Positions 26,853 to 37,256 of a stretch of DNA of 64,000 bases are shown here, one piece after another; positions within the stretch are counted from its first letter, which is position 1, and each line of letters opens with the position of its first letter. The translations under genes were made by a program, and so were the position numbers. The notes beneath the pieces are model-generated. The model searched no databases. It was given only the letters and a program-made list of their open reading frames with translations, and was not told the origin of the DNA. The DNA is taken from positions 4,051 through 68,050 of the forward strand of contig LBYO01000004.1 in NCBI GenBank assembly GCA_000996205.1. The letters run 5' to 3'. This DNA is from Parcubacteria group bacterium GW2011_GWA1_40_21 (GTDB lineage: Bacteria; Patescibacteriota; Minisyncoccia; Phycocordibacterales; GWA1-40-21).

Positions 26853-28793
26853 CTATTTCACAACCTTATCTTCTGAATATTTGAAGTCAGGATCGGTCTT
26901 TAATGTAGTTGTAAGGGAAGGTCGCGTTTCTCCAACTGATGCGGATGTAAAGCTGTCCGTTCCGCTTAAGACTGATTCGTTTAGAATTACGGGGCTCTGT
27001 CCCTCATGACTCAAGCTCGGGAGGAAGGAAATTTGGAAAGATGCTTCTCTCGGCGGACCTTCAATACCCGCGCCGGCTTCTATGTCTCCCGCGTCCCAGA
27101 CCACTTCCGCCCTCGCGGAATTAAATGAAATATTTTCACTGGCGGGATTTGTCTGCGAAAGCCATTTGACATAAAGAGGAAGACTTGCGGCGACTTTGGC
27201 GTCTTTGATCTTGCTTGAAGTGTTTGTTATCGTCCAGATCACCGTATAAGTCGTTTCACTTTCGGCTTTTGGAGGCATTGGTCCGGTGTTCTCAAATGGT
27301 CCGCTCCAGTGAATAGCGCGGGAAGACAGCCTTGCGTCAGTCGCTATTTTGATTATTCTTGTCGCGGAATACAAAACTTCCTGAGGGACATTGTCTCCTT
27401 CAAGCCTTTTGCCTCTCGCGACTATATCCAGAGAAATTGAAGGCTCAATCATAAGCGAGGATCCGCCGATATGAGAACTCAGACTCCCGAATGAAAAGTT
27501 TAAATTCCCGCTCTCGCCCGGGGACATTGACCCTAAAGCCGGATTATTCGTCTTGTCAAAGACGATGGTATTGTCAACCGACCTGTAAAAACCCCGCTCG
27601 GCGGAAACCGATGATTTGTTCAGGGTGTCGCCTTTAAACTTTATCTGAATCTCCGCGTCTTTAATCGGGGTCGCGAGATTGTTTTTCCAAGCGACATCGG
27701 CTCTTATGATTTTACTGCTCTCGGAAACAAAATCATTGGCAGTGTTGCCGTCAAGGGCGATTTGAATGCCGATAAAAGGCTTCTTGATTGAAACTTCCGC
27801 GAGAGAAGTGACAATGGGCGTGGCTATCACCTTCTCATCTTTGTCGCTTGAAATTCCCGTCGTAAATCTTAGAATCTTATTCTCTCCGTCCTGACCCTGC
27901 ATCTTGCCGTAAATTTTAACGGTTTTTTTCTGTCCGGCGGACAAATCTCCTATGGACCAAAGATTATTGTTCGTGTCAAGCGATTTTTCGCTTGAATCAA
28001 CAAAGACGAAACCGAACGGATATTCCGCCTTGAGCAAAAGATTTCTGATCGGATTGGAAGAATTTGAAACAACAGTAACGGAAAAATCAACCGCCTGATT
28101 GGCATTTATTTCTTTAAGGCCGGACACTTCAATGCTCACCGGCGAGTCGCTTATGACGACTTCATAAGTTTTTTCTTTATAAAAAATCGCGCTTGAACCG
28201 GAAATGCGATACTCCACGGTCACCTTTATTTCTTTTTTGCTTTTTTCTTCGCCGAAAAGTATGGCCTCAACTCTTTTTACGGCGCTCTCTCCTTGGGGTA
28301 TATCGCCGAGCTCATCCCTCGTCCTCTTGAGCTCTGTCTTTAAATCATCTATGGCGCGCGCTCCCTCCGGATACTCAACGCGGAGATCCGCCGCTTTGAG
28401 GTCGGTTTTATTGTTGTTGTCAACTTTTATATCAAGGGAGATTTTCTCCCCGCCGGAAACCGAAACTGGTCCCGTTATGGAAATTTCTATATTGTTAGCC
28501 GAAATTGTGTTTGACCCCCAATAAAATCTGTAAAAAGCCACGCCGGAAGCAATTAGAAAAAATAAAATTGAAACAATAAAAAATTTCATCACAAAAGTCA
28601 TTCCTTTCTTCTCCTTGATGAAGATTGGCTTTTTTTCAAGACTTTCTTCACCTTCGTGAGACCATTCGCCCGCCACATCATAAGATTCGCTTTTCAAGTG
28701 GCGGCTTTTCCTGTCCGTTCTCGCGCGATTATCTCTTGAATAAAGTCCTCTTTTTAACTTTTCAATACCGCTATTGTTATCTTGGGATTCCAT
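26853..28793 (-). CDS. hypothetical membrane-anchored protein with repeated beta-rich extracellular modules
   Basis: 646 aa. It has a charged N-terminal cytoplasmic tail and one TM (FVMKFFIVSILFFLIASGVAFY), followed by a long extracytoplasmic region. Confidence 0.45.
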   Translation of the reverse strand: MESQDNNSGIEKLKRGLYSRDNRARTDRKSRHLKSESYDVAGEWSHEGEESLEKKPIFIKEKKGMTFVMKFFIVSILFFLIASGVAFYRFYWGSNTISANNIEISITGPVSVSGGEKISLDIKVDNNNKTDLKAADLRVEYPEGARAIDDLKTELKRTRDELGDIPQGESAVKRVEAILFGEEKSKKEIKVTVEYRISGSSAIFYKEKTYEVVISDSPVSIEVSGLKEINANQAVDFSVTVVSNSSNPIRNLLLKAEYPFGFVFVDSSEKSLDTNNNLWSIGDLSAGQKKTVKIYGKMQGQDGENKILRFTTGISSDKDEKVIATPIVTSLAEVSIKKPFIGIQIALDGNTANDFVSESSKIIRADVAWKNNLATPIKDAEIQIKFKGDTLNKSSVSAERGFYRSVDNTIVFDKTNNPALGSMSPGESGNLNFSFGSLSSHIGGSSLMIEPSISLDIVARGKRLEGDNVPQEVLYSATRIIKIATDARLSSRAIHWSGPFENTGPMPPKAESETTYTVIWTITNTSSKIKDAKVAASLPLYVKWLSQTNPASENISFNSARAEVVWDAGDIEAGAGIEGPPREASFQISFLPSLSHEGQSPVILNESVLSGTDSFTSASVGETRPSLTTTLKTDPDFKYSEDKVVK

Positions 28794-31188: not shown

Positions 31189-34100
31189 TTACGCTTCTAT
31201 CTTGGCTTTTATCACAAAGCCGTCGGTGGAGATTTCCTGTCCGTCTTCCACAACGGCGTTGAATTCCAGTTTTTCTATGCCTGCTGATTTTTTGATTTCC
31301 TCGGCGAATTTTTCCATAAATTCTCTGGCATGGATTTCAGCTTGAACATACAAAATTATTTTCTGGCTGGTATTAAGACCGGCTTTCTTTCTCAAATCTT
31401 GAAGACCGCGAATCAAATCTCTCAAACTACCCTCTTCTTTGAGCTCGGGCGATATTTCCGTATCCAACTCAACCTCGCCTAAAATTTTCTCATCAAAAAT
31501 AATCTCTTTGACATTCAGCTCATCTTTGATCAAATCCAACATTTCTTTCTCCACTTTATGGACTTTATAACTTTTGACTTTTAACTTTTTTAACGCCTGT
31601 CTCACTTTTATATTCGCCTTTGCTCTAGCCTCCAACCCCAAAGAAACAATTCTCCTAACCTCCTCCATATCCTCAATTAAACTTTCGACTTTCGACTTTC
31701 GACTTTCGACTACTTTTACCCATTCTTCCAAATGAACGCTCTCTTTATCCTTTCCTTTGCCGTTCAATTTTTGGTACAAATATTCCGCCAAAAAAGGAGT
31801 GAATGGCGCCATAATTTTTGACAGTTCGGTCAAAACATACTTCATCGTGGCAAGCGCGAATTGTTTGTCTTTATAGTCATCTCCCTTTACCCTTTCTCTT
31901 GATCTGCGGACATACCAAGTGGAAAATTCATTGATAAAATCTTTGATCGGGCGGCCAGATTTGACGGTATTGTAATTTTCAAGCCCCTCCGTCACTTCAT
32001 TTATAAGAATATTGAGCTTGGCGAGAATCCATCCATCAAGAACATTTTCACTGTCTTCGCATTTCGTCTTGCCGTCATACTCGCCTTGATAAAGTTCAAA
32101 AAAATTGAATGTGTTAAGAAGAATATTTATCACTTTATTGTGAGCGTCCTTGATTTCCTCATCCGCAAATTTTATGTCTTCCGCCTGCATTATCGGACTG
32201 GTCATAAGATAATAACGCAAAGCATCCGCTCCGTACTTGTCCATATTCAGCATCGGGTCGGTGTAATTGCCTTTGGACTTGGACATTTTGCTCCCGTCTT
32301 CGGCTAAAATTGTTCCGGTGGTAATGACATTTTTGAAACTTGCATCGTCAAATAAGATGCCCGAAATGGTGTGCATATAGTAAAACCATGTTCTTGTTTG
32401 AGCCACATATTCGGTCACAAAATCACCCGACGGAAAACGGCTGCCGAGTTCTTTTTCATTTTCAAACGGATAATGATATTCGGCAAACGGCATCGCACCA
32501 GATTCAAACCATCCGTCAATAACTTCCGGCACTCTTTTCGTTTCGCCGAGACAGTCTTCACCACTGCAAACCAGATCAACTTCATCTATATAAGGCCTGT
32601 GCAAATCAAGCTCGTAATTTTCATTGTGCGGAAGCGGAACGAAGTCCAGTTTTCTTATCTCCGCGTTTTCAATAAAAAATTCTCCGTTTCCCCGCATAAG
32701 AAGCGCCTCTTTCGCATTCATCCCGAATGATCCGGCGAACAAAAGCCATGCAGGAGAGTCGTGAGTAACAATCAAAATATTTTTATTGTTGTGCCGTTTT
32801 TCAATGTCGTAAATAAAATCGGCGGTTCTTTTTTTAATATCGGAGTAATTTTCCCCCTGCGGAGTATTTTTTATAAATCGTTCTTCAAACGAAGTAAAAT
32901 AGTCGGTGTATGCCGATATAGATTTTCCATCAAATGTTCCCGCGTTCAATTCTCCGACTCTATTTTCAAGAATAATGTCAGATGGCTCAATTTGGAGCTT
33001 CCGTGCGATAATTTCCGCAGTTTCTTTTGTCCTCACAAAAGGCGAGCTGAAGATGATGTCAATTTTTTCAACTATCAAATCGTCCCCCGCTTTCGCCGCC
33101 TGCTCTCTGCCTTTCTCCGTCAAATGACTTGAATTTTTAGAATCGGAACTTATGAAAGCTTTTACATTGTTATCCGCTTCTCCGTGTCGAACCACAAAAT
33201 ATTTATTGCCGGATTTTTTTGTTTTTTTCTTTAATTCATCCACAGAACCGACAAGTTCAATTTTTCCGCATTTCTCGCATTTCCAAATCGGCAGAGGTGA
33301 GGCCCAATAGCGATTGCGGGAAATATTCCAATCCGGAGCGCTTTCTATATTATTCAGAAATCTGCCGTGTTTTAGGTGGTCTGGAAACCAATTTATTTTT
33401 TCATTAAGCTCCTTCAGGCGATTTTTCACTTTTTGGATGTTGATAAACCACGAAGAAAGCGCGCTGTAATAAAGCGGCGTTTCGCAACGATGGCAATGCG
33501 GATAGGAGTGAGTATGCGCCTGTTTGGCGAAAATCAATCCTCTTTTTTCCAAATCTTCTTTGATGTATTTCTCTCCTTTCTTCAAATAAAAACCTTGGAT
33601 AAATTCCGGCGCTTCTTTGTTGAAATGACCGCTTTGGTCTAAAAGCGGAATTGTCGGCAAATCGTATTTTATGCCGATATTATAATCGTCTTCCCCATGC
33701 ATCGGAGCGATGTGGACGATGCCGGTTCCGTCTTCCGTGGTCACGAAATCAGCCGAAACGACATAATGCGATTTTTTATTGAAATTTTTTACCGCCGGAA
33801 TTTCATAAAGTGGTTCGTATTCAAGTCCGACAAGTTTTTCACCGGAAAATTCACTTATTATTTCATAAGGTTCCGACAAAATACCGAGTCTTTCTTTCGC
33901 CAATATTAGATTTTCTCTGTCTTCAGTTTTTTCCGCCTGAGGCGGATCCGCCTCAGGCGGAAGATTTAATCCGTCAGCTGACGGATTAGATTTTAGATTA
34001 AGCTTGCAATAAATCAGCTCCTGATTTATTGCAAGCGCAACATTGCCCGACAATGTCCACGGCGTAGTCGTCCAAGCCAAAAGATAAGTATTTTCCGGCA

Positions 34101-34773
34101 AGTTGTGTTTTTTCGGATTTTTAACTTTAAACTTCACTATCACCGCTTCTTCCGTCACCGTTTTATAACTGTTATCCATCGCCACTTCCGCTTTGGCCAA
34201 AGGAGTCTCGCATCTCGGGCAATACATCAAAACCTTCCGACCTTCATAGAGCAAATCTTTTTTGTGGATTTCTTTTAACGCCCACCAAACGCTTTCAATG
34301 TAAGAATTGTCCATCGTCATATAGGAATTATCAAATTCCACCCAGCGGCCGATTCTCTCCACATAATTTTTCCAGTCGTGGGCAGTTTCTAAAACAGCGG
34401 AACGGCAAGTCTCGTTGAACTTTCCAACCCCCATCGCTTCAATTTCTTTTTTGCTCTTGAGCCCGAGCCTTTTTTCAATCATATTTTCAATCGGCAAGCC
34501 GTGGCAATCCCAGCCCCACCTTCGGCGAACATGATACCCCCGCATTGTCTTATAGCGAGGAATCACATCCTTAGCAACGGAAGAAAGCAAACTGCCGTAA
34601 TGAGGCAGACCTGTCGCAAAAGGCGGTCCATCATAAAAGACAAACTCGCCTTTCGGTGAATCCTTTGCCAAAGTTTTTTCAAAAATTTTATTTTCTTTCC
34701 AAAAACGGAGAGTTTCTTCCTCCCTTTTAGCCGTTTCGCTTTTGTTGTCTTTTTCCTTGTCGTTATTGGTCAT
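31189..34773 (-). CDS. ileS: isoleucyl-tRNA synthetase with an embedded histidine-phosphatase (PGAM-like) domain
   Basis: Carries 'PPFATGLPHYGSLL' (HIGH), 'WTTTPWTLSGN' (editing CP1), 'KMSKSKGN' and a zinc knuckle 'IWKCEKCGK'. Residues ~516-722 are 'YFVVRHGEADNN…FSSPFVRTKETAEII…ENRVGELNAGTFDG…ILIVTHDSPAWLL', a complete histidine-phosphatase core placed before 'LDLHRPYIDE'. Confidence 0.9.
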   Translation of the reverse strand: MTNNDKEKDNKSETAKREEETLRFWKENKIFEKTLAKDSPKGEFVFYDGPPFATGLPHYGSLLSSVAKDVIPRYKTMRGYHVRRRWGWDCHGLPIENMIEKRLGLKSKKEIEAMGVGKFNETCRSAVLETAHDWKNYVERIGRWVEFDNSYMTMDNSYIESVWWALKEIHKKDLLYEGRKVLMYCPRCETPLAKAEVAMDNSYKTVTEEAVIVKFKVKNPKKHNLPENTYLLAWTTTPWTLSGNVALAINQELIYCKLNLKSNPSADGLNLPPEADPPQAEKTEDRENLILAKERLGILSEPYEIISEFSGEKLVGLEYEPLYEIPAVKNFNKKSHYVVSADFVTTEDGTGIVHIAPMHGEDDYNIGIKYDLPTIPLLDQSGHFNKEAPEFIQGFYLKKGEKYIKEDLEKRGLIFAKQAHTHSYPHCHRCETPLYYSALSSWFINIQKVKNRLKELNEKINWFPDHLKHGRFLNNIESAPDWNISRNRYWASPLPIWKCEKCGKIELVGSVDELKKKTKKSGNKYFVVRHGEADNNVKAFISSDSKNSSHLTEKGREQAAKAGDDLIVEKIDIIFSSPFVRTKETAEIIARKLQIEPSDIILENRVGELNAGTFDGKSISAYTDYFTSFEERFIKNTPQGENYSDIKKRTADFIYDIEKRHNNKNILIVTHDSPAWLLFAGSFGMNAKEALLMRGNGEFFIENAEIRKLDFVPLPHNENYELDLHRPYIDEVDLVCSGEDCLGETKRVPEVIDGWFESGAMPFAEYHYPFENEKELGSRFPSGDFVTEYVAQTRTWFYYMHTISGILFDDASFKNVITTGTILAEDGSKMSKSKGNYTDPMLNMDKYGADALRYYLMTSPIMQAEDIKFADEEIKDAHNKVINILLNTFNFFELYQGEYDGKTKCEDSENVLDGWILAKLNILINEVTEGLENYNTVKSGRPIKDFINEFSTWYVRRSRERVKGDDYKDKQFALATMKYVLTELSKIMAPFTPFLAEYLYQKLNGKGKDKESVHLEEWVKVVESRKSKVESLIEDMEEVRRIVSLGLEARAKANIKVRQALKKLKVKSYKVHKVEKEMLDLIKDELNVKEIIFDEKILGEVELDTEISPELKEEGSLRDLIRGLQDLRKKAGLNTSQKIILYVQAEIHAREFMEKFAEEIKKSAGIEKLEFNAVVEDGQEISTDGFVIKAKIEA
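33933..34036. repeat. three consecutive perfect palindromes inside ileS coding sequence
   Basis: ccgcctgaggcggatccgcctcaggcgg (33933-33960), aatccgtcagctgacggatt (33968-33987) and gcttgcaataaatcagctcctgatttattgcaagc (34002-34036). Together they encode …INQELIYCKLNLKSNPSADGLNLPPEADPPQAEKTEDR…. Confidence 0.7.
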
Positions 34774-35489: not shown

Positions 35490-37256
35490 CTACATCCTCT
35501 CCGGAACTTGAATTCCCAGAAGATTGAGGCCGTTTTTCATTGTCGCGGCGAAAGAGGCGGTGAGAGCAACCTTGTAAGGAGAAATTTCGTCGTTAGTATC
35601 CACTATCTTGTGTTTGGCGTAAAAACTGTTGAATGATCCGGCAAGTTCAATCAAGTAAGAAGCGATATAGTGAGGAGAATATTCCTTCCCCGCCCTCTCC
35701 ACGATTTCAGGAAAGCGATAAAGCAATCTTTCCAATTCTGATGTTTCGGTGACGACTTTTTTTGCGGAAGCCTTTATCCCCTCTCCTTTGGCTTTCTCCA
35801 AAACAGATTTCGCTCTCGCGTAAGAATATTGAAGATACGGTCCGGAATCTCCCTCAAAAGAAATTGATTTGTCAAAATCATATACTATGTCGCTTCCAGT
35901 CGTATGTTTTAGTATTGAATATTTTATCGCTCCGATTGACACTTTTTCAATAATTTCTTTTTCCATCTCTTCGTTGTAATTTCTGTCTTTGATTTTTTCC
36001 TCCACGAGTTTTTGAGTATCTGTCATAAGCGACTCCGCCGTGATAACATCGCCCGTCCTTGATGACATTTTACCGCTTGGAAGCCGAAGCATTCCGTGAG
36101 AAATATGCTTTGTTTTTTCCGCCAAGTCCGGAAAAACAATTTCCATCGCCTTCAGCAAAACCTTAAAATAGTCATTTATCTCATTACCTGTCACGACTAT
36201 TGAAACATCGTATTGATAATGTTCATCGTATTTTATTTTCGCCAGTCCGAGCTCTTTGGCTTCGTAAGTCGGCAACCCTTCCGAATTTATGAAAACCCTC
36301 GTGTGCAATCCGTATTTCTCTCCTTTAAACACGATAGCGCCGTCACTTTTCTCAAAAACGCCATTCTTCAAATTTTCCTCCACTATCTTCTTGCCAAAAT
36401 CCCCTGTCTCTCTTTCAAAGAAAATGAAATCAAATTCCGTGCCCAGCTTTTTGTAAATTTCTCCAAAATGCTTAAGGGATACATCCTTACCCCAATCATA
36501 CAGTTTATTTATCTCATCATCGTTTCTATCATAAATTTTTTTGTTTATCACCTCAAGCTCTCCGCTCTCAATTGCTTTGTTTATTTCATCAACCCTTCTT
36601 TTAAAATCATCAATTCCGCTAAGTGATGAGAACGAACTCGAACCTAAAGAGTAAGACATCGCCAAAAATTTAACCTTGTTTGTCAACATAGCTTTATCAT
36701 CTGGCATTAAATCTCTTAGAGTTTTCATACCCAGGACAGCTTTTGCCACATGAAGCCCTACATCGCCTTGATAGCACGCCCTTTTCACTTCCGCGCCGTG
36801 AAATCCAATGATTCTGGACAGAGATTCTCCGATGGTGTTGCTCATCAAATGTCCGATGTGAAATTCCTTGAAAGGATTCGGGTCTGTGTATTCAATCATT
36901 ACTTTCCGCCCTTTAAGCGATTCGTTCGCGCCAAAACTATCGCCTTCCGTAATCGCCTCGCCTACACTTTCCGCGAAAAATTCCTTTGATAGAAAAAAGT
37001 TAATAAAGCCGGCGCCGGCGACTTCCGCTTTTTCAATTTCTTTTATTTCGCGCTTCCTTATTTCCTCCGCTATCTTTTCCGCCAAATCTATCGGTTTCGT
37101 TTTTAATTCTTTGGCGTAAGCCAAAGCCGCATTGGAAGAATAATCGCCGAAGTTTAAATCAGTCGGGTGTTCCAAATGAATATCATCCGCCGTGATGGAT
37201 GGCATCTTTAGAGCTTCCTGTATTGTATTTTTAAGTTTTTCTTGAATCATAATCAT
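35490..37256 (-). CDS. argS: arginyl-tRNA synthetase
   Basis: 'FHIGHLMSNTIG' (HIGH), the N-terminal Add-1-like domain, the C-terminal DALR anticodon-binding domain 'SPHYIASYLIELAGSFNSFY' and the end '…LGIQVPERM'. Confidence 0.9.
   Translation of the reverse strand: MIMIQEKLKNTIQEALKMPSITADDIHLEHPTDLNFGDYSSNAALAYAKELKTKPIDLAEKIAEEIRKREIKEIEKAEVAGAGFINFFLSKEFFAESVGEAITEGDSFGANESLKGRKVMIEYTDPNPFKEFHIGHLMSNTIGESLSRIIGFHGAEVKRACYQGDVGLHVAKAVLGMKTLRDLMPDDKAMLTNKVKFLAMSYSLGSSSFSSLSGIDDFKRRVDEINKAIESGELEVINKKIYDRNDDEINKLYDWGKDVSLKHFGEIYKKLGTEFDFIFFERETGDFGKKIVEENLKNGVFEKSDGAIVFKGEKYGLHTRVFINSEGLPTYEAKELGLAKIKYDEHYQYDVSIVVTGNEINDYFKVLLKAMEIVFPDLAEKTKHISHGMLRLPSGKMSSRTGDVITAESLMTDTQKLVEEKIKDRNYNEEMEKEIIEKVSIGAIKYSILKHTTGSDIVYDFDKSISFEGDSGPYLQYSYARAKSVLEKAKGEGIKASAKKVVTETSELERLLYRFPEIVERAGKEYSPHYIASYLIELAGSFNSFYAKHKIVDTNDEISPYKVALTASFAATMKNGLNLLGIQVPERM

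Follow-up and report, generated by a model that had tools for sequence, protein, structure and literature searches.

The stretch of DNA analyzed here (64,000 nucleotides, hereafter the window) belongs to contig LBYO01000004.1 of Parcubacteria group bacterium GW2011_GWA1_40_21 and contains ileS, the gene of isoleucyl-tRNA synthetase (IleRS). The gene is a single open reading frame on the reverse strand, from 34773 to 31189, with a product of 1194 amino acids that exceeds the cut-off of the NCBIfam ileS equivalog TIGR00392 (836.9 bits vs. 621.4), and it is the only ileS in a 761-kb genome that is 97.7% complete. Nested in the synthetase is a second domain, a complete and apparently active histidine phosphatase. 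An original prediction had described a continuous 1194-residue frame with such a phosphatase at 32608–33228 (residues 516–722); both the frame and the phosphatase were borne out, and the insert is now delimited to residues 521–712 (32638–33213). The features of the gene needed for the analysis are given below, with positions in the window and residues in the 1194-amino acid protein.

31189–34773, reverse: ileS, single open reading frame, 1194 amino acids, type-2 IleRS with a nested phosphatase domain
33214–34773, reverse: IleRS residues 1–520; first Rossmann half, CP core, CP1 editing domain, CP2, and first half of CP3 with CxxC
34591–34602, reverse: class I signature, residues 58–61, reading HYGS instead of HxGH (Ser at the fourth position)
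33268–33279, reverse: C499-x-x-C502 (CEKC), first half of the CP3 zinc knuckle, just ahead of the insert; kept by 72 of 100 homologues
32638–33213, reverse: the insert, residues 521–712, complete branch-1 histidine phosphatase domain (His_Phos_1), 192 amino acids
33181–33189, reverse: R529-H530-G531 (RHG, with the nucleophilic His); R529 and H530 invariant in 100 homologues
33166–33168, reverse: N536, phosphate-pocket Asn six residues past the nucleophilic His; invariant in the 100-homologue alignment
33031–33033, reverse: R581, second phosphate-binding Arg, in the S-P-x-x-R-T motif; invariant
32950–32952, reverse: E608, presumed proton donor; invariant in the 100-homologue alignment
32761–32763, reverse: H671, distal His of the phosphate pocket; invariant
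31189–32637, reverse: IleRS residues 713–1194; remaining CP3, second Rossmann half with KMSKS, anticodon-binding domain, and C-terminal DUF5915
32551–32568, reverse: C736...C741 (CSGEDC), second half of the CP3 knuckle, just past the insert
32275–32289, reverse: KMSKS loop, intact; K829 and K832 invariant

The host synthetase and the inserted phosphatase

The host is an IleRS of type 2, as judged from phmmer E-values of 7e-210 to the Thermus enzyme (1ILE) and 3e-206 to IleRS2 of Priestia megaterium, vs. 6e-86 to IleRS1. The AlphaFold2 model of the whole protein (mean predicted local distance difference test score, pLDDT, of 90.6; predicted template modelling score, pTM, of 0.84) agrees with this assignment, with IleRS2 8C8V, yeast IleRS, and Thermus 1ILE at the top of its fold ranking. 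The part ahead of the insert, residues 1–520, aligns with Thermus IleRS residues 11–482, and the C-terminal part aligns with residues 488–820. In Pfam terms, the tRNA-synt_1 match is broken into two stretches with His_Phos_1 between them, the first of which (residues 21–523) corresponds to profile positions 2–272 of 414, followed further down by Anticodon_1 (residues 913–1062) and DUF5915 (residues 1101–1193).

The original prediction had taken HIGH, CP1, and KMSKS to be intact, which is correct for two of the three. KMSKS is present at 32275–32289, and the editing motifs of CP1 are readable in the translation, i.e., a threonine-rich peptide at about residues 232–246 and GTG.VH..P at about 349–360. 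W234 and T235–T237 are invariant in an alignment of 100 full-length homologues (46–85% identity), and the CP1 region matches isolated Thermus editing-domain structures. HIGH, in contrast, reads HYGS, a minority variant; of the 100 family members, 84 have H at the fourth signature position, 12 have S, and 3 have N, and 20 of the 100 carry a swapped GxHH form of the signature. A preprint ties the GxHH form to mupirocin hyper-resistance in IleRS2 (10.1101/2023.01.31.526100). The models of the mupirocin-resistant IleRS MupA and MupB are not reached (710.7 and 709.1 bits, respectively, vs. 1900), and these scores reflect general type-2 similarity only. CP1 also contains a proline- and acid-rich low-complexity loop (residues 258–290; 33904–34002, reverse) that has no counterpart in Thermus IleRS and includes residues 265–284, the sole stretch of the model with a pLDDT below 50. 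By its sequence, the host would be a working type-2 IleRS, both functional and essential, because the genome (97.7% complete) has one ileS, with an intact KMSKS and recognizable editing motifs.

Alignment with Thermus IleRS pinpoints the insertion. Residues 497–520 correspond to Thermus 459–482, and the correspondence resumes from residue 722 onward with Thermus 488 onward; read directly, the flanks are ELK..K, the insert, and PLP..HRPY, as in Thermus. The insert occupies the place of ~5 Thermus residues and nothing is deleted, making it a clean addition of 192 amino acids. This agrees with the point named in the original prediction, past the zinc knuckle and before HRPY, where ~200 residues stand against the ~5 of Thermus. 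The insert separates CEKC from CSGEDC, which together make up a Cys knuckle, and this places it in CP3. In a published IleRS structure, CP3 forms the link from CP2 into the second Rossmann half, and the CP3 of Thermus IleRS contains a zinc motif (PMC7191050).

The His_Phos_1 profile (PF00300; cut-off 21.7 bits) covers residues 526–691 with an E-value of 9.9e-32 and 110.6 bits, and the segment excised from the protein scores 113.3 bits. All four phosphatase motifs quoted in the original prediction, i.e., those of RHG, R581, E608, and H671, are in place. The invariant columns of the 100-homologue alignment within the insert are N523, R529, H530, N536, G555, S577, R581, E608, E641, L667, and H671, which include the complete catalytic set. 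We also aligned 57 phosphatase domains from all architectures, 21 of them free-standing. H530 is conserved in 57 of 57, and the position of E608 is occupied by Glu, or by Asp in two. The copies embedded in an aminoacyl-tRNA synthetase (aaRS) all retain the catalytic set, with changes confined to Gly/Ala at the glycine of RHG and one Glu-to-Asp substitution in a ValRS-type copy; of the free-standing 21, the first Arg is missing from three, and Asp takes the position of N536 in one. The mean pairwise identity of the insert (0.49) is comparable to that of the IleRS core domains (0.52–0.60) and the C-terminus (0.41); thus, the insert is constrained about as much as the synthetase.

The insert is also predicted to fold on its own, as the original prediction had proposed to check with AlphaFold. 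Modeled alone, it reaches a pLDDT of 94.9 and a pTM of 0.92, and in the model of the whole protein, ten-residue blocks over the insert and both junctions have pLDDT values of 88–97, with the junction linkers at 91–95. With a net charge of −4 and a pI of 5.65, the domain resembles its free-standing relatives in being mildly acidic, and it has no basic surplus of the kind expected of an RNA binder. Taken together, profile, conservation, and model describe a complete, conserved, and independently folding branch-1 histidine phosphatase.

The G+C content of the insert (0.404) is close to that of the rest of the gene (0.414), and a sliding profile runs through the gene without a break. A search with the insert among synthetase-length proteins found at least 2,592 protein clusters sharing the architecture at E ≤ 0.001; the best 120 of the 2,592 all have PF00133 and PF00300 and are 46–85% identical over the insert. 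In species-representative genomes, 202 loci span both junctions. The named records among them belong to Campbellbacteria, Wolfebacteria, Zambryskibacteria, Nomurabacteria, Kaiserbacteria, Vogelbacteria, Paceibacterota, and Minisyncoccia, and the spread of the 202 loci is that of the Parcubacteria part of Patescibacteria. An assembly chimera, considered in the original prediction, is ruled out by the lack of a G+C break and by the same junctions in independent assemblies. More broadly, we regard the probability that the feature is an artefact or relic, i.e., a chimera or a decayed domain left as a mere spacer, as practically nil: the junctions recur across clusters and loci from independent projects, composition is continuous, and the catalytic residues are invariant in an insert conserved like the IleRS domains around it.

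Distribution, architectures, and history in Patescibacteria

The survey of patescibacterial IleRS suggested with the original prediction shows the insert to be common, both in the protein clusters described above and in genomes. We found a His_Phos_1 match in 89 of 111 sampled genomes of the same class: in a frame of at least 900 amino acids in 73, in a frame cut by the contig end in three, and as a free-standing domain only in 13. With about two thirds of the 111 genomes sharing it, the insert-bearing form of IleRS predominates in this class. The other 22 genomes, several of them 100% complete, have no His_Phos_1. In a phylum-wide sample, 139 of 401 genomes contain a relative of the insert at E ≤ 1e-10.

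Twenty-nine of the long phosphatase-bearing frames were checked by BLAST against the 1194-amino acid protein and by Pfam, and 28 of the 29 are aaRSs. Their architectures are listed below.

L019–L025, L030, L053: IleRS with one phosphatase at the CP3 site (site A)
L011–L013, L015 (all family f20): IleRS with tandem phosphatases at the CP3 site
L016, L014: IleRS with the phosphatase at a second site (site B), between the catalytic and anticodon-binding domains
L014:4138-8403, reverse: IleRS with GNAT at residues 637–735 and the second-site phosphatase
L052:2681-6775, forward: IleRS with NUDIX at residues 220–336 and a phosphatase
L017, L018, L027–L029: ValRS-type, phosphatase at the homologous CP3 position, ValRS C-terminal arm present
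L051, L056, L057, L059: ValRS-type, phosphatase at the homologous CP3 position, without the ValRS C-terminal arm
L026:3984-7433, reverse: ValRS-like, GNAT and phosphatase side by side
L054:2645-4969, forward, and L055:2483-4843, forward: class II AlaRS, phosphatase in the loop just ahead of motif 3

The tandem IleRSs are ~1440–1470 amino acids long (open frames of 1466–1553 amino acids), and both of their phosphatase copies have the full catalytic set; in the same family (f20), 10 of 11 genomes matched the AlaRS-insert query. The AlaRS form is found in seven protein clusters and, in the phylum sample, in five genomes, all of them from family f56. In most genomes, a single synthetase carries the phosphatase, and the choice of synthetase differs by lineage. 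The lone non-aaRS frame of the 29, L058:1126-2778 (forward) in genome G211 of the window's order, joins a D-2-hydroxyacid dehydrogenase to a true dPGM-type domain; it scores 164 bits with pgm_1 (cut-off 81.7) and belongs to another histidine phosphatase subfamily.

The phosphatase also occurs as a free gene near ileS. In family f16 of the same class, IleRS has no insert and aligns to residues 18–520 and 723–1165 of the window's protein with three residues in between, and a free phosphatase gene is found between argS and ileS, next to the former on its downstream side and a few kb upstream of the latter (L148, L149, L153, L164–L166). The window has the corresponding neighbor:

35490–37256, reverse: argS, directly upstream of ileS on the same strand; Pfam Arg_tRNA_synt_N, tRNA-synt_1d, and DALR_1

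The pair of argS and ileS is conserved in this class; of 57 related loci whose flanks are complete, 45 have argS as the gene directly upstream of ileS. In the f16 genomes G376 and G389, a weak AOX-like di-iron gene adjoins the free phosphatase; it has no homology to the small open reading frames flanking ileS in the window. Among the neighbors of 16 free-standing phosphatase genes, no consistent partner was found beyond the argS/ileS cluster of f16; one-off neighbors include Maf, SurE, DHODH, a methyltransferase, and rubrerythrin.

Two phylogenetic trees bear on the history of the insert. In the tree of phosphatase domains, copies from the same class form one supported group and the two site-B copies form another. 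The first and the second copies of the tandem forms make up two separate old groups, which points to an ancient duplication, and the ValRS copies are scattered. The IleRS copy of genome G271 groups (100/99) with the free genes of G112 and G171, which lie ~1–2.5 kb from ileS. In the tree of IleRS bodies, computed with the phosphatase removed and unrooted, the insert-less f16 enzymes and the site-B and tandem forms nest among site-A enzymes, and the f16 enzymes are sister to G271 at 99/98. Read together with the taxonomy, the IleRS-body tree is most simply explained by a phosphatase that was moved, doubled, un-fused, and recaptured, yet stayed with ileS, although direction is not proven by an unrooted tree. 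This phosphatase subfamily has a strong and recurrent association with aaRS genes.

Possible activities of the nested phosphatase

The original prediction had called the domain PGAM/SixA-like. The superfamily part of this label (PF00300) stands, while the SixA and dPGM subfamilies do not, and the insert falls below every NCBIfam equivalog or subfamily cut-off for a named phosphatase:

dPGM_arch: 90.4 bits, cut-off 225, below cut-off
CobC: 73.9 bits, cut-off 162.9, below cut-off
PspA: 70.5 bits, cut-off 350, below cut-off
SixA (TIGR00249): 36.6 bits, cut-off 74.5, below cut-off; only the first ~70 positions matched
pgm_1: 25.1 bits, cut-off 81.7, below cut-off

By sequence, then, the insert belongs to the superfamily and to no named subfamily. 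The nearest solved structures in sequence searches (E-values of 9e-14 to 4e-12) are PspA, PhoE, CobC, and GpgP, at 17–25% identity. Similarly, the best Foldseek match is PspA 4IJ6, with a template modelling (TM) score of 0.77, and PspA, PhoE, CobC, GpgP, and dPGMs are all matched at a probability of 1.00 with TM scores of 0.70–0.77. An Entamoeba phosphoserine phosphatase and a riboflavin-pathway phosphatase (HFP) are also among the nearest structures at ~0.75, and TIGAR and the fructose-2,6-bisphosphatase domain are also among the sequence and fold matches. The 50 best Foldseek matches include no structure of SixA or of a protein phosphatase. Instead, those nearest to the insert are capped phosphatases of small metabolites, and the insert (~190 amino acids) matches the ~200-residue PspA, PhoE, and CobC structures along its length. 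Because the nearest folds are those of small-substrate phosphatases and the domain is acidic, the comparison suggests a small-molecule substrate.

Several specific activities were considered and rejected. A glycolytic phosphoglycerate mutase is contradicted by the dPGM cut-offs and by a separate 507-amino acid protein of the Metalloenzyme family (iPGM-type) in the genome. A pyrophosphatase that would pull amino acid activation forward is not needed, as the genome encodes a family I pyrophosphatase; a membrane H+-pyrophosphatase was not found in it. A phosphoserine phosphatase, as in a fusion to SerA, is not indicated by L058, whose domain is of the other, true dPGM type and is uninformative on the subfamily of the insert; the Aminotran_5 protein of the genome is a cysteine desulfurase rather than SerC. 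Elsewhere in the window, a 646-amino acid protein with a DUF11 repeat is encoded at 26853–28793 (reverse), in otherwise housekeeping surroundings (a RecO-like gene, a class II aaRS, and thymidylate kinase).

The explanation we favor, to which we give about an even chance, is that of an autonomous, PspA/PhoE-like phosphatase for small substrates that uses the synthetase as a platform, the whole forming a bifunctional enzyme. The phosphatase, nested in a surface loop of CP3, would fold on its own and hydrolyze a small soluble phosphomonoester by the usual mechanism of the superfamily: H530 would take the phosphoryl group, which R529, N536, R581, and H671 would hold, and E608 would protonate the leaving group. 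The synthetase would provide constitutive, translation-matched expression and co-localization. The conserved residues indicate that the phosphatase is probably catalytically active. A role specific to isoleucine, tRNA-Ile, or IleRS inhibitors is unlikely, because the same subfamily sits in IleRS, in ValRS-type enzymes, and in AlaRS, or stands as a free gene. Three points weigh against an autonomous phosphatase on a platform. The domain falls below all equivalog cut-offs, and no substrate can be named. The linkage to IleRS survives relocation, duplication, and un-fusing, which is more than a passive passenger predicts and would also allow for an action in cis on the chemistry of the synthetase itself. 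Lastly, the 22 of 111 genomes without His_Phos_1, several of them complete, imply that the activity is dispensable in some lineages.

Action in cis, which we consider unlikely, would be directed at the CCA end of tRNA, at the serine of KMSKS, or at a phosphorylated nucleotide-type inhibitor at the active site. Toxins with such targets are known: toxSAS toxins place a pyrophosphate on the CCA end, and the KMSKS-type loop of GltX/TrpS is a phosphorylation target of HipA/HipT. The phosphatase might, for instance, remove a 2'/3'-phosphate or pyrophosphate block from the CCA end, or dephosphorylate the KMSKS serine after a HipA-like kinase. The association with aaRSs is indeed recurrent and non-random, with at least four combinations of host and site, and it outlasts changes of site; both IleRS sites flank the KMSKS-bearing Rossmann half in sequence, and some relatives add GNAT or NUDIX inserts, enzymes for amino groups and nucleotide diphosphate linkages, respectively. 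On the other hand, the fold is nearest to capped small-substrate phosphatases, with SixA and protein phosphatases missing from the 50 best Foldseek matches, and the domain is as acidic as its free-standing copies. A repair needed by every aaRS or tRNA would also fit oddly with genomes that mostly equip one, lineage-variable synthetase, in f16, this phosphatase works without a host, from a free gene, and no RelA_SpoT-type synthetase was found in the genome. This lack of a RelA_SpoT domain led us to reject the idea of a counter-measure to a resident toxSAS, which leaves toxins from other cells as a possible target. A wider form of the same thought, which we hold to be rather improbable, is that patescibacterial aaRSs carry built-in maintenance or defence enzymes (a histidine phosphatase and, in some lineages, NUDIX and GNAT) acting at the aminoacylation site. 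Such enzymes might strip phosphoryl or pyrophosphoryl blocks from CCA or KMSKS, or inactivate inhibitors that mimic the adenylate, and would make these aaRSs self-repairing or self-protecting in cells too small for separate systems.

Two further readings start from metabolism. The phosphatase could be a sugar-bisphosphate phosphatase (FBPase/SBPase, like yeast Shb17 or TIGAR) that fills a gap in central carbon metabolism, with the fusion only securing its expression; this is a special case of the autonomous phosphatase and, taken by itself, quite improbable. The genome encodes a class II ketose-bisphosphate aldolase, beside a glyoxylate-reductase-like dehydrogenase (C20:5884-9423, locus L143), and its only His_Phos_1 domain is the one within ileS. 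Phosphofructokinase, class I or II FBPase, and transaldolase were not found in the genome, in a search that left FBPase classes III and V and the IMPase type outside. TIGAR and the fructose-2,6-bisphosphatase domain are among the matches, but the top folds are PspA, PhoE, and CobC rather than bisphosphatases, the near-constant aaRS host is left unexplained, and 22 of the 111 sampled genomes of the class do without any such domain. The other reading makes the domain a metabolite sensor, through which a glycolytic or nucleotide phosphoester would tune IleRS, either by binding to the domain or by phosphorylating H530. If true, it would couple translation to energy or carbon status in a cell without a RelA/SpoT system, and it would fit the missing RelA_SpoT domain, the position in the catalytic core with confidently modeled linkers (pLDDT 91–95 at both junctions), and the persistence of the physical linkage to aaRSs. 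We think it very doubtful, as allostery can hardly be obligatory where a free gene serves the purpose, as in f16, the host synthetase varies between lineages, and the full catalytic set is kept, including the proton donor, beyond the need of a binding module.

An apparently active and unrelated enzyme inside the core of the sole IleRS lies outside the textbook picture of the well-studied aaRSs. In Patescibacteria, it is the rule rather than a curiosity, and touches the translation machinery of a major part of uncultivated bacterial diversity. Curated ileS naming seems to miss the phosphatase-bearing proteins, and metabolic reconstructions may overlook the phosphatase. If it is a passenger only, the domain would be a clean case from nature of an insertion that CP3 tolerates, of use in the engineering of aaRS fusions; if it acts on tRNA, the synthetase, or inhibitors, it would represent a new kind of quality control or defence.

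Comparison with known systems

No description of a histidine phosphatase in any aaRS was found in the literature searched, a coverage that excludes most subscription journals. Database names of the relatives are only 'class I tRNA ligase family protein' or 'isoleucyl-tRNA synthetase', and there is no curated model for a phosphatase-bearing IleRS among the NCBIfam matches of the protein. The feature is an aaRS with a captured accessory domain, present in databases by the thousands and undescribed in the literature searched. The original prediction had presented the architecture as one not known for IleRS; this is too strong for the databases, where it is common, and agrees with the source names shown, none of which mentions the phosphatase, and with the literature.

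Each half of the protein has well-characterized counterparts. The host is of the same type as Thermus IleRS (1ILE) and Priestia megaterium IleRS2 (8C8U/8C8V), with target-normalized TM scores of 0.80–0.91 and a shared CP3 zinc knuckle and DUF5915, but these enzymes have ~5 residues where the host has its 192-residue insert. The insert, in turn, shares fold, ~200-amino acid size, and catalytic residues with the free short histidine phosphatases PspA (4IJ5/4IJ6), PhoE (1H2E/1EBB), CobC (6E4B/6NRU), and GpgP (4QIH). These stand as independent proteins, whereas the insert, 17–25% identical to them, is nested in a synthetase.

Branch-1 phosphatases joined to an enzyme of nucleotide or nucleic acid metabolism are known from mycobacterial MutT1 (Nudix + HP, NF052459) and from Rv2228c (NF005567), which function as a Nudix/histidine phosphatase and an RNase H/acid phosphatase, respectively. 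The C-terminal domain of NF005567 is among the better NCBIfam matches of the insert (72.8 bits), and the cut-offs of NF052459 and NF005567 (326 and 475 bits) are not reached. Both proteins are end-to-end fusions with partners other than aaRSs, in contrast to the nested insertion seen here. A pairing like that of MutT1 recurs in L052, which unites NUDIX and phosphatase in one IleRS. An IleRS with another foreign enzyme domain is represented, by its name, in NCBIfam NF040702 (ileS_w_GNAT), and GNAT inserts also occur in the relatives L014 and L026. The 1194-amino acid protein differs from it, with no GNAT family among its Pfam matches and a score of 309.7 bits (cut-off 1999).

In its pattern, the feature comes nearest to CAAD of cyanobacteria, a domain with free homologues that, within this one phylum, was captured repeatedly and independently by class I aaRSs (ValRS, IleRS, LeuRS, GluRS, and others) at internal positions (PMC4893482). 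One capture was ascribed to the fusion of neighboring genes, and the synthetase stays active (PMC4893482). The insertion points of CAAD are reported to lie on the side of the enzyme that faces away from the tRNA. The phosphatase parallels this pattern, being found in IleRS at two sites, in ValRS-type enzymes, in AlaRS, and as a free gene by ileS. However, CAAD is a non-catalytic membrane anchor limited to class I, whereas the phosphatase is an enzyme domain with a fully conserved active site that has also entered the class II AlaRS; and CAAD lies C-terminal to the catalytic core, whereas the main site of the phosphatase, CP3, is inside it.

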